The translations under genes were made by a program, and so were the position numbers. From Octopus vulgaris (Eukaryota), in the NCBI GenBank assembly GCA_951406725.2, contig OX597828.1, forward strand, positions 71,176,001-71,240,000: a stretch of 64,000 nucleotides of DNA, written 5' to 3'. The notes below the pieces were generated by a model, which saw only the letters and a program-made list of their open reading frames with translations, did no database searches and was not told where the DNA came from. The number at the start of each line of letters is the position of its first letter. The stretch's first letter is position 1. Positions 199 through 37,112 of the stretch are shown here, piece after piece.

Positions 199-391
199 CC
201 TGTGGCACCTGTGCCGGTGGCATGTAAAGGCACCCACTACACTCATAGAGTGGTTGGCGTTAGGAAGGGCATTCAGCTGTAGAAACACTGCCAGATCAGA
301 CTGGGCCTGGTGCAGCCTTCTGGCTTCCCAGACCTCGGTCGAACCGTGGAAAGCGGACGTTAAACGATGATGATGATGATGATGATGATGA

Positions 392-6123: not shown

Positions 6124-6712
6124 ATCATCATCATCATCGTTTAACGTCCGCTTTCCGTGCTAGCATGGGTTGGACGGTTCAACTGGGGTCTGGCAAGCCC
6201 GAAGGCTGCACCAGGCCAGTCAGATCTGGCAGTGTTTCTACAGCTGGATGCCCTTCCTAACGCCAACCACTCCGAGAGTGTAGTGGGTGATTTTATGTGC
6301 CACCGACACAGGTGCCAGACGAGGCTGGCAGACGGCCACGCTCGGATGGTGTTTTTTATGTGCCACCGACACAGGTGCCAGACGAGGCTGGCAGACGGTC
6401 ACGCTCGGATGGTGTTTTTTATGTGCCACCGACACAGGTGCCAGACGAGGCTGGCAGACGGCCACGCTCGGATGGTGTTTTTATGTGCCACCGACACAGG
6501 TGCCAGATGAGGCTGGCGAACGGCCACGATCGGATGGTGTTTGTTACGCGCCCACAGCACGGAGGTCAGTCGATGCGGTACTGGCTACGGCCACGTTCGG
6601 ATGGTTTTCTTATGTGCCACCGGCACTGGTACCACAAGGATACAAATTCCATTGATGTTCATCTATTTGATTTGGTTTGATTTGATTTGATTTTCACTTG
6701 CCTCTACAGGTT
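6122..6712 (-). mobile_element. Young RTE LINE 3'UTR copy containing a 63-bp tandem repeat (about 4.5 units, 6291-6600)
   Basis: CpG-rich; unit TTTTATGTGCCACCGACACAGGTGCCAGACGAGGCTGGCAGACGGCCACGCTCGGATGGTGTT; ends at TCACTTG, the complement of the ORF2 stop region CAAGTGA. Confidence 0.85.
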
Positions 6713-13751: not shown

Positions 13752-14112
13752 ATCTTTTACTTGTTTCAGTCATTAGCACGGCCAAGCTGGGGCACCACCT
13801 TGAAGAATTTCAGTCGAACTATTCGATGACTGTACTTACTTTCTTTTTAAACCTGATGCTTATTCCATCGATCTCTTTTACTGAACTGCTAAGTTATGGG
13901 GACAGAAACAAACCAACATCAAGCAGTAAGGAGGGGGACAAACACAAAGACACACACAACAGGCTTCTTTCAGTTTCCGTCTACCAAATCCACTCACAAG
14001 GCTTTGGTTGTCCTGAGGCTATGGTAGAAGACACTTGCCCAAGGTGCCACACAGTGGGACTGAACATGGAACCATGTGGTTGGGACACAAACCTCTTACC
14101 ACACAGCCACAC
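13752..14112 (-). mobile_element. SINE family A (older subfamily)
   Basis: TTTTACTTGTTTCAGTCATT...CTTGCCCAAGGTGCCACACAGTGGGACTGAAC...TTACCACACAGCCA. Confidence 0.8.
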
Positions 14113-14446
14113 CTTCACCTCTAATATTACAGAATTTTCAAAAAAATTAAGGAGAATCAAATACATCACCCTTTCTACAAAAACATCATCAACAATTTAA
14201 TATCCACCTTTCCATGCTGGCATGGGTTGGACGAGACACATTTCACACTGTTTTACAATCAAATGCCAACCTTGCCCCATCTGCTGGTTGTTTTGTAGAA
14301 ACTCCCAGCTGATGTGTTTTTAGCCCAGGTCAGCCCTCATCTGGCAGATCTATGATCTGATCAAAGATATTCCAACACTGACCATGCTGTTTATTGCCAA
14401 TATGCAGGGAATGCAGGATCACATTATGCATGACCTTTTATTTTGT

Positions 14447-14688
14447 ACATTATTTACATTAGATGGATATTTGTCCTCATCTTGTTTGTTGTTAACACAA
14501 CGTTTTGGCTGATATACCTTCCAGCCTTCATCAGGTGTCTTGGGGAAATTTCGAACCTGGGTTCTCATTCCTAAGGTATATTTCGATGTTATTGTTATTA
14601 TCATTATTATTATTATTATTCAGGTTACTGCCAGGAATCGAACTCGGAATCTTGGGGTTAGTAGCTCATGCTCTTAACCACTACACTA
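14447..14688 (-). mobile_element. tRNA-headed retroposon carrying a hammerhead-like motif, bounded by a 10-bp TSD
   Basis: TSD TTTATTTTGT at 14437-14446 and 14689-14698; A box TAGTGTAGTGG (14688-14678), B box GAGTTCGATTCC (14645-14634), (AAT)n linker, then hammerhead-like fold at 14494-14539. Confidence 0.8.
14494..14539 (-). ncRNA. Minimal hammerhead-ribozyme-like motif
   Basis: GACAC-CTGATGA-A-GGCTG-gaaggtatat-CAGCC-AAAA-CG-T-T-GTGTT: helix I GACAC/GTGTT, CUGAUGA core, 5-bp helix II, loopless palindromic ACGU helix III; G12 is replaced by A in a CpG context. Confidence 0.6.
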
Positions 14689-15730
14689 TTTATTTTGTGA
14701 TAGTAAGGTGAAACCTGAGAGAGACTTAGCTACTATTTCTGACACACTGAGGTTCCTTTGTTATGCCATAGGGTTCTATATCCTCTTCCTCCAAATTAAA
14801 ATTCCTTTTGATGCCAAATAGTTTTTTTTGTTTCTATGGCAACAGTCTACAATTGCTGCCAATATAAAGAGATAATTAGATAAATTATAAACCATCTTTC
14901 AAAAAGTTATTTAAAATATATTTCTATGGTTTAGAATGCAATCCTTACATCATCATCACTTTATATCCGTTGTTCCTGGTATATTTGGGTATTTGCACAA
15001 ATTCTTGGAGCAGATATTTTATAACATGAAGAAACCACAAAACAAGCATTATAATTCTTTAAAATCTCTTGTTTTTAACTGGAAGAAACCTGTTCAAAGA
15101 GCAAAGAAGCTCATTTTCCCTAAAATTTGATTCTACTAAAGAAGTTTGGCATTGCTATAAGTGAGTGGTTTCAAACTTTAGCACAAAGCCAGCAAGTTCG
15201 AGGTGGAGGGAAGGTGCTATGTTGATTACATCGGCTCCAGGGCTCAACTGGTACTTATTGTATTGACCCTGAAAGGGAAGATGAGTAAAGTCGACCCCAT
15301 TAGGAACTTGAACCCAGAATGTAAAGGCAGATGAAATGCTACTAAGCATTTTGCCTGACATGTTAACAATTCTGCTGGCTTGATGCCTTATAAATGTACC
15401 GATATTGACCACTTAGAGAAATCTATACTCATTCCATCATCTTTGTATTTTGCCATCAGCTTTTTCTGTAGACACAGGTTGGGAAGCTCATGTAGTTCCA
15501 GGTTCAATCCCTCTGCATGGCACCTTGGACAAGTGTCTTCAACTATAGCCTTAGTCTGACTAAAGCCTTGTGAATGGATTTGGGAGACGGAAATTGGAAG
15601 AAGCCTGTCATATATATATATATATATATATGTTAGAAGGTTTGGAGATGACGTACAGGTATTATATATTAGAAGAAATGAGCTACTCAAAAATCTGGAT
15701 TGGTACTCAGATTTCTGAGTACTTCATTTC

Positions 15731-19830: not shown

Positions 19831-21067
19831 TTACATGACACCGTCCCCAGTGCCTTTTACGTGGTACCATCACCAGTGCTTTTCATGTGGCACCATCACC
19901 AGTGCTTTTCATGTGGCACCATCACCAGTGCTTTTCATGTGGCACCATCACCAGTGCTTTTCATGTGGCACCATCACCAGTGCTTTTCATGTGGCACCAT
20001 CACCAGTGCTTTTCATGTGGCACCATCACCAGTGCTTTTTATGTGGCACCATCACCAGTGCTTTTCATGTGACACCATCACCAGTGCTTTTCATGTGGCA
20101 CCATCACCAGTGCTTTTCTTGTGGCACCATCACCAGTGCTTTTCTTGTGGCACCATCACCAGTGCTTTTCATGTGGCACCATCACCAGTGCTTTTTATGT
20201 GGCACCATCACCAGTGCTTTTCATGTGACACCATCACCAGTGCTTTTCATGTGGCACCATCACCAGTGCTTTTCTTGTGGCACCATCACCAGTGCTTTTC
20301 GTGTGGCACCATCACCAGTGCTTTTCTTGTGGCACCATCACCAGTGCTTTTCATGTGGCACCATCACCAGTGCTTTTCGTGTGGCACCATCACCAGTGCT
20401 TTTCGTGTGGCACCATCACCAGTGCTTTTCGTGTGGCACCATCACCAGTGCTTTTCATGTGGCACCATCACCAATGCTTTTCATGTGGCACCATCACCAA
20501 TGCTTTTCGTGTGGCACCATCACCAGTGCTTTTCATGTGGCACCATCACCAGTGCTTTTCGTGTGGCACCATCACCAGTGCTTTTCGTGTGGCACCATCA
20601 CCAGTGCTTTTCGTGTGGCACCATCACCAGTGCTTTTCGTGTGGCACCATCACCAGTGCTTTTCATGTGGCACCATCACCAATGCTTTTCGTGTGGCATC
20701 ATCACCAGTGCTTTTCATGTGGGACCATCACCAGTGCTTTTCGTGTGGCACCATCACCAGTGCTTTTCATGTGGCACAATCACCAGTGCTTTTCATGTGG
20801 CACAATCACAAGTGCTTTTCATGTGGCACAATCACCAGTGCTTTTCATGTGGCACCATTGCCAGTGCTTTTCATGTGGCACCATCACCAGTGCTTTTCGT
20901 GTGGCACCATCACCAGTGCTTTTCATGTGGCACCATCACCAGTGCTTTTCATGTGGCACAATCACCAGTGCTTTTTATGTGGCACCATCACCAGTGCTTT
21001 TCTTGTGGCACCATCACCAGTGCTTTTTATGTGGCACCGTCCCCAGTGCTTTTTACGTGGTACCAGT
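19830..21067. repeat. 26-bp minisatellite, about 47 units
   Basis: Unit GTGGCACCATCACCAGTGCTTTTCAT with few variants (CGT, CTT, TAT, GACA); no unique spacers. Confidence 0.97.
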
Positions 21068-32799: not shown

Positions 32800-33156
32800 C
32801 GTGTATATATTCTGTGGGTGTGTATATATAAATATGTATGTATATATATGTAAGTATATGTGTGTATATATGTATGTATGTATATCTGTATGTGTATGTA
32901 TATATGTGTATGTATGTATATATATATAAGTGTATGTGGATATATATGTGTGTATATATATGTGTGTGTATATATATATGTGTGTGTATATATATATGTG
33001 TGTGTATATATATATATATATCTATATATATATGTGTGTGTGTATATATATGTGTGTATATATATATGTGTGTGTGTGTGTATATATATGTGTGTATATA
33101 TATATGTGTGTGTGTGTGTGTATATATATGTGTGTATATATATATATGTGTGTGTG

Positions 33157-33193
<37 letters not shown>

Positions 33194-36100
33194 AAGTGTA
33201 TTTATATATATGTATATGTGTATATATATATGTGTGTGTGTGTAAGTGTATTTATATATATGTATGTGTATATATGTGTGTATGTGTATATATATATGTG
33301 TATATATATGTGTGTATGTGTATATATATATGTGTATATATATGTGTGTATGTGTATATATATATGTGTATATATATATGTGTATATATATGTGTGTATG
33401 TGTATATATGTGTGTATGTGTATATATATGTGTGTATGTGTATGTATGTGTGTATATATATGTGTGTGTGTATATATATATGTGTGTGTATATATATGTG
33501 TGTGTATATATATGTGTGTGTATATATATGTGTGTGTATATATATATGTGTATATATATGTGTATATATATGTGTATATATATGTGTATATATATGTGTA
33601 TATGTATATGTGTATATATGTGTGTGTATATATGTGTGTATATATATGTGTGTATATATATGTGTGTATATATATGTGTGTATATATGTGTGTATATATA
33701 TGTGTGTGTATATATATGTGTGTGTATATATATGTGTGTATGTATATGTGTGTATATATATGTGTGTATATATATATGTGTGTATATATATGTGTGCATA
33801 TATATGTGTGTATATATATGTGTGTATATATATATATGTGTGTATATATATATGTGTGTATATATATGTGTGTGTATATATATGTGTGTATATATATATG
33901 TGTGTATATATATATGTGTGTATATATATATGTGTGTATATATATGTGTATATATATGTATATATATATATATGTATATATATATGTGTGTGTGTATATA
34001 TGTGTGTGTGTATATATGTGTATATATATATTTATATGTGTATATATATTTATATGTGTATATATATATATATATATGTGTGTGTATATATGTGTGTGTG
34101 TATATATATATATGTGTGTGTGTATGTATATGTGTGTGTATATATATGTGTATATGTGTGTGTGTGTATATGTGTATATGTGTGTGTGTGTATGTGTGTA
34201 TATGTGTGTGTGTATATATATGTGTATATGTGTGTGTGTATATATATGTGTATATGTGTGTGTATATATATGTGTATATGTGTGTATATATATGTGTATA
34301 TGTGTGTGTGTATATGTGTGTATATGTGTGTGTATATATGTGTATGTGTGTGTGTATATATGTGTATATGTGTGTATATATGTGTATATGTGTGTGTATA
34401 TATGTGTGTATATATGTGTGTATATATGTGTGTATATATGTGTGTATATATGTGTGTATATATATGTGTGTATATATATATGTGTGTATATATATATATG
34501 TGTATATATATATGTGTATATATATATATGTGTATATATATGTGTGTATATATATATGTGAATGTATGTATATGTGTGTATATATATATGTGAATGTATG
34601 TATATGTATATATATATATATGTGAATGTATGTGTATATATATATGTGAATGTATGTGTATATATATGTGAATGTATGTGTATATATATGTGAATGTATG
34701 TGTATATATATATGTGAATGTATGTGTATATATATATGTGAATGTATGTATATATATATGTGAATGTATGTATATATATATGTGTATGTATGTATATATA
34801 TATGTGTGTATGTATATGTATATGTGTATGTATGTATGTATATATATGTGTATGTATGTATGTATATATATGTATATATATGTGTATGTATGTATATATA
34901 TATGTATGTATATATATGTGTATGTATGTATATATATGTGTATGTATGTATATATATGTGTATGTATGTATATATATATGTGTATGTATGTATATATATG
35001 TGTATGTATGTATATATATGTGTATGTGTGTATATATGTGTATGTATATATATATGTGTATGTATGTATATATGTGCATGTATGTATATATGTGCATGTA
35101 TGTATGTATATATGTGCATGTATGTATATATATATGTGCATGTATGTATATATATATGTGTATGTATATATATATATATATGTGTATGTATGTATGTATA
35201 TATATATATATGTGTATGTATATATATATATATGTGTATGTATATATATATATATGTGTATGTATATATATATATATGTGTATGTATATATATATATATG
35301 TGTATGTATGTATATATATATGTGTATGTATATATATATATATGTGTATGTATGTATATATATATGTGTATGTATATATATGTGTATGTATATATATATA
35401 TATGTGTATGTATATATATATATATGTGTATGTATGTATATATATATGTGTATGTATGTATATATATATGTGTATGTATGTATGTATATATGTGTATGTA
35501 TGTATATATATATGTGTATGTATGTATATATATATGTGTATGTATATATATATATATGTGTATGTATGTATATATATATATGTGTATGTATGTATATATA
35601 TATATGTGTATGTATGTATATATATATATGTGTATGTATGTATATATATATGTGTATGTATGTATATATATATGTGTATGTATGTATATATATATATGTG
35701 TATGTATGTATATATATATATGTGTATGTATGTATATATATATGTGTATGTATGTGTATATATGTGTATGTATGTGTATATATATGTGTGTATGTATATA
35801 TATATATGTGTATATGTATGTATGTATATGTGTGTATGTATATGTGTGTATGTATATATGTATGTGTCTATGTATATGTATGTATATATGTATATGTATG
35901 TATATGTATGTACATATGTATATATGTGTGTATGTATGTATATATGTATATATATATATATGTGTGTGTATGTATGTATATATGTATATATATATATGTG
36001 TGTGTATGTATGTATATATGTATATATATATATATGTGTGTATGTATGTATATATGTATATATATATGTGTGTATGTATGTATATATGTATATATATATG

Positions 36101-37112
36101 TGTGTATGTATGTATATATGTATATATATATGTGTGTATGTATGTATATATGTATATATATATGTGTGTATGTATGTATATATGTATATATATATGTGTG
36201 TATGTATGTATATATGTATATATATGTGTGTATATATATATATGTGTGTATGTATGTATATATGTATATATATATATGTGTGTATGTATGTATATATGTA
36301 TATATATATATATGTGTGTATGTATGTATATATGTATATATATATATATGTGTGTATGTATGTATATATGTATATATATATATGTGTGTATGTATGTATA
36401 TATGTATATATATATATGTGTGTATGTATGTATATATGTATATATATATATGTGTGTATGTATGTATATATGTATATATATGTGTGTGTGTGTATGTATA
36501 TATATGTGTGTGTATGTATATTTATGTGTGTATGTATATATGTATATATATGGTTGTATGCATATATGTACATGGATGTATATATGTTTGTATGTATATA
36601 TGTGTGTATGTATATATATATGTGTATGTATATATGTATATAGATGTGTATGTATATATGTATATAGATGTGTATGTATATATATATATATATATATATG
36701 TGTATGTATATATATATGTGTATGTATATATATATATATAGATGTGTATGTATATATGTATATATATGTGTGTATGTATATATGTGTGTATGTCTATGTA
36801 TATATGAATGGATGTATGTATATATGTGGATGGATGTATGTATATATGTATGTATGTATATATGTATGTATGTATGTATGTATATATGTATGTATGTATG
36901 TATATATGTATGTATGTATGTATGTATGTGTATATGTATGTATGTGTATATGTATGTATGTATGTATGTGTATATGTATGTATATATGCATGTATAAATA
37001 TATATATATATATATATGTATATTTGTGTGTGTGCGTATATAGATATATGTATGTACGTATATATGTTTACAAGTGTGTGCCTATATATGTATGTATGTA
37101 TGTATGTGTGTA
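32800..37112. repeat. ~4.3-kb compound (TA/TG)n alternating purine-pyrimidine array
   Basis: Almost uninterrupted RY alternation with very few C on the plus strand; sub-domains include TGTGAATGTATG (about 34558-34770) and TGTGTATGTATGTATATA. Confidence 0.98.

Follow-up and report, generated by a model that had tools for sequence, protein, structure and literature searches.

A 242-bp repeat at positions 14447..14688 of a 64,000-nucleotide stretch of the Octopus vulgaris genome (assembly GCA_951406725.2, contig OX597828.1, positions 71,176,001 to 71,240,000 of the forward strand; this whole stretch is termed the window) is almost certainly a short terminal-repeat (pLTR) copy from a Penelope-like element (PLE) that resides in the same genome and encodes a reverse transcriptase (RT) and a GIY-YIG domain. 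The pLTR of this element contains tRNA-derived A and B boxes. On balance, we favor the reading that RNA polymerase III (Pol III) made the copy from this tRNA-derived segment and that the copy was inserted by the RT and endonuclease of the element itself.

The link to the PLE emerges from the sequence that precedes the repeat in other copies. Several short copies run upstream into coding sequence, and this coding piece has 2,886 candidates in the genome; in 28 of the 30 loci fetched, a pLTR piece of the same sense directly follows the end of the open reading frame (ORF). The RT domain of this ORF matches RVT_1 (E 5.8e-8), and its C-terminal piece, for which no direct Pfam match was obtained, aligns to the GIY-YIG-bearing homologue P0066 (E 2e-13). 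The element is arranged as the ORF stop, about 25 nt, the tRNA-like A and B boxes, an (AAT)n linker, the ORF start with a hammerhead ribozyme motif in the first codons, and an optional tail. Locus L121 is a nearly full-length copy and L224 a complete partial tandem of the form pLTR-ORF-pLTR. In L197, a frame starts at the ATG that follows the (AAT)n linker and passes through the hammerhead and the tail into the ORF, and the homologue P0019 has kept the hammerhead-encoded residues at its N-terminus. The marks of endonuclease-bearing (EN+) PLEs are all present, namely, an ORF with RT and C-terminal GIY-YIG, a partial-tandem pLTR, an inverted truncated 5' copy, and an optional tail of 30-40 nt, and the layout suggests an assignment to the Penelope/Poseidon clade. 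The preliminary description of this DNA had suggested a search for PLEs with RT and GIY-YIG that end in the 3' part of the repeat. The PLE was found via the coding sequence upstream of the copies. The GIY-YIG families retrieved by a profile search are other PLE families and were rejected as partner PLE (0 of 30 loci share sequence with the element). Twelve weaker protein matches checked as sister families all belonged to the same family bar one 73%-identical fragment (L219 848-1686, oriented), which has 0 TTTT in 840 nt and where the pLTR was not found.

A DNA search of the 2.8-Gb genome returned 4,234 first-look candidates, of which 40 were scored, the window copy and 39 others at 89-94% identity. 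Exact genomic matches numbered 3,418 for an intact-core hammerhead pattern and 5,491, 8,248, and 12,824 for 19-mers of the head, the middle, and the 3' part, respectively, with 0 matches for each reversed control; these figures count arms, not insertions. For a 19-mer of the ORF that lies about 250 nt upstream of that in the head, there are 940 exact matches, yet it is carried by 27 of the 30 ORF loci; it replaced the ORF 19-mer tried first (35 matches), which is a minority variant present in 2 of these 30 loci. The ORF copies depart from the commonest base by 6.5%, and none was seen intact, the longest open frame being 569 amino acids, so the family has decayed and is likely inactive at present. 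All 30 bins of L224 are covered by contigs that come from four runs, each of a different organism (a measure of sequence presence alone), and the element is thus common to related species; no relative of it was found in viral contigs.

The short copies descend directly from the master that they share with the ORF-linked copies. When 167 short arms were compared with 46 ORF-linked arms, the commonest base agreed at 262 of 263 columns, the sole difference being a CpG site. As the head is located inside the ORF-bearing element and no diagnostic bases separate the two sets, there is no separate family of short interspersed elements (SINEs). The preliminary description had seen the repeat as such a SINE, in which a tRNA head was fused to a borrowed 3' half of a PLE. 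Its multicopy nature, its mobilization by a PLE, and its tRNA-derived head stood, but the head belongs to the pLTR of the PLE itself and the fusion as a separate SINE had to be given up. A non-autonomous family with masters of its own, mobilized in trans by the PLE, would agree with the roughly 6-14-fold excess of short over ORF copies in the raw 19-mer counts, with the retention of A and B boxes from which short copies could be re-transcribed, and with their slightly lower divergence compared to ORF-linked arms; against the position of the head and the lack of diagnostic bases, however, this idea is largely refuted and very improbable. Among the hallmarks of tRNA-derived SINEs, the repeat has the A/B-box head, whereas a distinct master and a 3' end related to long interspersed elements (LINEs) or a simple-repeat tail are lacking. 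A SINE mobilized by a LINE, or a single chance fusion, is refuted and can be set aside with near certainty: TSDs (target-site duplications) of 7-13 bp arise by LINE-type insertion as well, but there are thousands of copies (the 3,418 intact-core matches against 0 for the reversed pattern already go beyond a chance fusion), with inverted arms and an optional tail on one side; poly(A) and repeat tails are absent, and the 3' part is PLE coding sequence.

The window copy has the following parts, all on the minus strand.

14689..14698, minus strand: TSD on the 5' side of the element, exact over 10 bp in the sequence.
14437..14446, minus strand: TSD on the 3' side, exact over 10 bp; its first 3 nt also match the element's own continuation.
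14678..14688, minus strand: A box of the tRNA-derived head, CpG-decayed in the window copy, which starts here.
14621..14688, minus strand: tRNA-derived head, from alignment to sampled genomic tRNAs.
14634..14645, minus strand: B box, by motif.
14588..14620, minus strand: (AAT)n linker; its length varies among copies, and other insertions often interrupt it in other copies.
14566..14568, minus strand: ATG opening the PLE reading frame, as shown in the natural copy L197, where the frame reads through hammerhead and tail into the ORF.
14494..14539, minus strand: minimal type I hammerhead, by motif, whose ACGU helix III is loopless; predicted cleavage between 14499 and 14498.
14535-14539 / 14494-14498, minus strand: hammerhead stem I, by motif.
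14528-14534, minus strand: hammerhead CUGAUGA, by motif.
14522-14526 / 14507-14511, minus strand: hammerhead stem II, by motif.
14499-14506, minus strand: hammerhead AAAA-CG-UU, by motif, with G12 = A at 14506.
14447..14493, minus strand: 3' part of the pLTR, corresponding to the first ORF codons; the 3' end belongs to the tail-less class.

The perfect 10-bp TSD reported in the preliminary description is exact at 14437-14446 and 14689-14698, and the A box, B box, (AAT)n linker, and hammerhead parts that it listed were all located within 14447-14688. The 242 bp are indeed a TSD-bounded insertion, but they fall short of the full unit by about 13 nt 5' of the A box and by the tail of 35-40 nt at the 3' end. 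Similarly, the AT-rich 3' end has no poly(A), repeat, or LINE tail, as had been noted, but it is the 5' coding end of the PLE ORF; it falls in the loop of a stem predicted to form with the tail in longer copies. The window copy is a single arm, without an inverted 5' arm.

The structure of further insertions was analyzed in 85 distinct units pooled from four samples, one drawn by likeness to the window copy and three by short patterns at the start of one chromosome. An inverted arm was present at the 5' end of 47 of the 85 units. The 3' ends were bimodal, with 60 at +225..259, 50 at +270..284, and 0 at 260-269, so that the two groups lie about 35-40 nt apart; among the 34 units with two complete 3' ends, a tail was found on one arm in 30, on none in 3, and on both in 1. 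The tail is predicted to pair with a stretch 3' of the hammerhead. TSDs of 7-13 bp flank 25 of the 85 units (19 of which are inverted units; one TSD is AAT-like) compared to 3% of mismatched flanks, and the class without TSD still holds units split by long AAT arrays. This analysis superseded an earlier test at single-arm boundaries, which ignored inverted arms and tails and detected TSDs of at least 8 bp in 1 of 30 cases. Copies are mostly single or head-to-head; head-to-tail arrays are not the pattern, and a neighbor in the same sense, as at L083, is rare. Inverted 5' arms and an optional one-sided tail are known PLE insertion marks according to the available sections of PMC8557442, and the two groups of 3' ends match the two internal RT start sites that the accessible part of PMC11167929 describes for the element PAc. 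It is likely that the window copy was inserted by the RT and endonuclease of its own element.

Other rearrangements were noted among the copies. Internal deletions within the pLTR are common in ORF-bearing copies (e.g., L099, L108, L115, and L222), and the AAT linker is broken by insertions of other elements in L133, L142, and L096. In L070, L077, L086, and L089, 5'-truncated copies are joined via the AAT linker to the AAT-ending 3' ends of two other repeats, by either microhomology joining or insertion into AAT tails. L147 and L148 are two head-plus-AAT copies, 5 kb apart, that share the same flank and represent a local segmental duplication.

Of the 35 distinct tRNAs (10 anticodon types) in an incomplete sample from the genome, tRNA-Arg(TCG) matches the head best and is tentatively considered its parent; local alignments of the head to genomic tRNAs reach z values of 5.8-9 relative to shuffles. 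The A/B-box pattern was found in 0 of 80 related PLE loci, and the same pattern recovers 15 of 30 of the element's own copies. A relaxed ARAGORN search called 14 of 30 heads with inconsistent anticodons, and its result was not used. At positions -1..+8 of the A box, upstream of the ORF ATG, the box is overlapped by an ATG, a single codon, and a stop, which would form a two-codon upstream frame if the RNA is translated. Inspection by eye points to a copy of another common repeat with a tRNA head near the 242-bp copy (window 13950-14110, minus strand).

Three lines of indirect evidence point to Pol III. The 5' ends of copies selected by the head 19-mer fall at -14..0 of the A box in 24 of 30 cases when BLAST ends were curated, or in 21 of 30 by an automatic walk; the rate per base in this interval is about 25-fold above that on either side, and 2 of the 30 copies extend 500-730 nt into the ORF. 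Exact genomic matches likewise drop from 5,491 for the head 19-mer to 940 for that of the ORF. Metazoan Pol III is terminated by TTTT, and TTT-N-TT can have the same effect. Over 2,631 positions in 67 copies, no TTTT site occurs in more than 10% of copies, compared to 5.0 expected from composition (P 0.0065); TTT sites common to most copies number 13 instead of 22.6 (observed/expected ratio of 0.58), and TTT-N-TT motifs are common to copies at no position. The corresponding TTT ratios of 25 intact related PLEs used as controls range from 0.88 to 1.61, with a median TTTT ratio of 1.52, and the ORFs of a second PLE family in the same genome, whose T content is similar, contain 9 and 8 TTTT. Finally, TTTATAA, formed by the last codons and the stop of the ORF, is located 30-31 nt upstream of a G at -13 in 33 of 41 rows of ORF-pLTR junctions, and TATA-like boxes at -31/-24 occur in type 2 Pol III promoters, as stated in the available excerpt of PMC7279448. 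Judging from these sequence features, the short copies were probably made by Pol III. A further-reaching proposal, which we hold tentatively and consider somewhat less probable than its contrary, is that the whole ORF-bearing element of about 2.9 kb may be transcribed end to end by Pol III from the captured tRNA promoter, its ORF having been purged of T-run terminators, and that the promoter of the downstream pLTR may have spawned the SINE-like copies; the element would then represent the mid-step of a route from PLE to SINE.

A number of observations weigh against a role of Pol III. Uncapped Pol III RNA is a poor mRNA; Pol II read-through from host promoters could supply the PLE protein. An upstream direct pLTR with A and B boxes was found at only one locus (L224), and the upstream pLTR is truncated below the head at 5 of 30 loci. 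Departures from the commonest base are at least as great in the A and B boxes as elsewhere, so the copies show no selection. The 5'-end samples consist of the first matches on one chromosome, with some inverted pairs contributing both arms. The T-run test was designed post hoc and is of moderate strength; its P value is 0.033 given the 13 shared TTT sites and 0.08 by a synonymous-codon shuffle of 1,716 nt in one copy. Its controls include no PLE family of the same clade from the same genome, and comprise L316 with 0 TTTT (1.3 expected) and L270 with a ratio of 0.26; L031, a short ORF stretch of another family in the same genome, is also without TTTT. The TATA-like box is equally suited to Pol II, and the Penelope element of D. 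virilis has an internal promoter likened to LINE promoters in the available part of PMC2377424. L270 (OFEN01001488.1, 76-2421) is an intact related PLE with 1 TTTT compared to 3.8 expected, in which no A/B boxes were found; it may be another instance of T-run avoidance or may indicate what chance can produce.

Two other accounts of the 5' ends were considered. The same element may be transcribed by Pol II from the TATA box of the pLTR, with the short copies resulting from downstream pLTR transcripts, the tRNA-like piece being a passenger at the start site, and the lack of T-runs being compositional or due to chance. In favor of this account, 34 of 41 rows have TATAA at -28 relative to the inferred start, a capped RNA accounts for translation, and the T-run P values are only 0.007-0.08, depending on the test, but the intact A/B spacing begins exactly at the start site, the poverty in TTT is unmatched by any of the 25 intact related PLEs, and TTT-N-TT motifs are likewise absent from shared positions, so that transcription by Pol II appears unlikely. 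Less probable still is ordinary 5' truncation of long PLE transcripts, in which the RT stalls or folds back at a palindrome and the tRNA-like structure and the head has no promoter role. Truncation is heavy in PLEs, as reported in the available sections of PMC8557442, and fold-backs at a palindrome lying immediately 5' of the A box account for many of the junctions. However, this palindrome has just 4-5 bp, stronger hairpins such as hammerhead stem II and the tail stem show no comparable pile-up (as judged by eye), and truncation leaves both the TATA-like spacing and the T-run depletion unexplained.

In the favored Pol III scheme, transcription would start about 13 nt upstream of the A box, aided by the TATA-like box that derives from the last codons and stop of the ORF. 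The downstream pLTR of each ORF-bearing copy would give rise to an RNA of about 300 nt that ends at the first T-run in the flank, whereas an upstream pLTR in tandem would generate a transcript of the whole ORF, which has no fixed TTTT. The PLE protein would then start reverse transcription internally at one of the two sites, leaving the tail absent or present, and folding back at the 5' palindrome would produce the inverted arm. The hammerhead of the PLE clade would need dimerization or the help of protein, and its cleavage would not be required for insertion.

The family has the anatomy of a minimal type I hammerhead, with a CUGANGA and GAAA core, stems I and II, and a palindromic helix III. 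The PLE-type motif recognized in the preliminary description, with a bulged A after CUGAUGA, the loopless ACGU helix III, and a GUU site, is present in the window copy, which departs from this anatomy at G12, replaced by A. A change at G12 should abolish hammerhead activity, and the hammerhead of the window copy is therefore likely inactive. In 110 arms collected by fuzzy matching rather than by the exact core pattern, CUGANGA was intact in 98, the GAAA that the family was expected to show was kept in 82, and the whole motif persisted in 33. The G12-to-A change and its mirror C-to-T change occur 25 times each in these arms, as CpG decay predicts, and motif losses are mostly at CpG. Among 15 related PLE motifs from metagenomes, stem I is paired in 51 of 60 and stem II in 53 of 60 cases, with compensatory changes, compared to shuffled means of 26.7 and 32.5; since these motifs share kinship, the comparison does not translate into a probability. 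Rfam detected neither a tRNA nor a hammerhead family at the window copy or in 18 other loci, where low-complexity matches to microRNA and small nucleolar RNA families were the sole result, ARAGORN predicted zero tRNAs across the window, and the 242-nt minus strand folds no better than its shuffles (z -0.67), so the hammerhead assignment is based on the anatomy of the motif and on its covariation in relatives. Among 30 copies picked by a downstream 19-mer, the 5' ends showed no pile-up at the predicted cleavage site. The PAc hammerhead requires protein and is dispensable for insertion in vitro according to the part of PMC11167929 that is available. Given that the motif occurs in related PLEs and the A/B-box pair in none of the 80 loci, the hammerhead would have been inherited from the PLE clade and the tRNA head gained later.

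The RNAs produced by Pol III are short and non-coding, and the expression of retrotransposon ORFs is taken to depend on Pol II or on a Pol I co-transcript. If the proposal of Pol III transcription is true, a PLE that combines A and B boxes in the pLTR with an ORF free of terminators would be a natural test of whether an autonomous element can be carried and templated by RNA from Pol III, and also of the role of PLE hammerheads in the 5' coding region. Regardless of the polymerase, what looks like a high-copy "tRNA SINE" can turn out to be a PLE pLTR, which bears on repeat annotation and on the view that LINEs are the only partners of SINEs.

Parallels exist to several known systems, which are compared here on the basis of those parts of the cited sources that were available. 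The closest layout among canonical EN+ PLEs is that of PAc/Poseidon of Anolis (PMC11167929), which likewise combines RT with a C-terminal GIY-YIG; its pLTR overlaps the beginning of the ORF, whose first codons contain the hammerhead. The minimal hammerhead ribozymes of PLEs share the loopless palindromic helix III and the bulged base before G10.1 (PMC4209133), and canonical PLEs also form partial tandems and inverted 5' copies with an optional tail of 30-40 nt (PMC11167929, PMC4209133). In contrast, the octopus element has tRNA-derived A/B boxes and an (AAT)n linker in its pLTR, 5' ends that cluster just upstream of the A box, and a sense strand without shared TTTT. Titles and abstracts from full-text literature searches described no PLE with a tRNA-derived promoter, and Repbase, Dfam, or subscription papers may hold the family under another label. 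The tRNA-derived SINEs, including OK, OR1, and OR2 of octopus, resemble the unit in their A/B-box head, length of about 300 nt, high copy number, and TSDs, but the octopus PLE unit has no LINE-derived 3' end or repeat tail and is part of an ORF-bearing element instead of a separate parasite. These three SINEs were reportedly described by Ohshima and Okada in 1994. OR2 is classed as a CORE SINE (PMC4758252). The schistosome Sm-alpha and Sj-alpha repeats (PMC6765202) also have a Pol III-type promoter followed by a hammerhead; they are tandem SINE-like repeats freed by ribozyme cleavage, for which the available text names no partner ORF, whereas the octopus copies are dispersed or inverted and correspond to the pLTR of a PLE that has been identified. 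The non-LTR retrozymes of animals (PMC7229834; bioRxiv 10.64898/2026.07.22.740005), which have a type I hammerhead, and Chlamys non-autonomous elements such as MRC1 (PMC8557442) are likewise short PLE-related units for which the use of PLE enzymes was proposed. Head-to-tail arrays are typical of both and circles of the retrozymes, whereas head-to-head pairs dominate in the octopus element; a tRNA or Pol III promoter was not found in the available descriptions of retrozymes or MRC1-type elements.

The second PLE family of this genome (L037, L042, L231, and L232; G000:C16:20835500-20840559, C16:33682000-33686978) has many intact open frames of 781 amino acids and is thus probably young. At its 3' end lies a motif that resembles a hammerhead and shows the U3-A8 core variant reported in PMC4209133, and tandem repeats with TGACGTC and ATTGG motifs are located upstream. 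An uninterrupted frame, perhaps a retrocopy, adjoins a copy of the tRNA-headed PLE (L098 2673-3200, oriented) and may resemble a ribosomal protein L16. The window itself contains a 4-kb simple-repeat tract of the TA/TGTA type with extreme GC skew (32818-37023), 46 units of a 26-bp repeat at 95% match (19847-21053), and four units of a 63-bp repeat (6291-6542).
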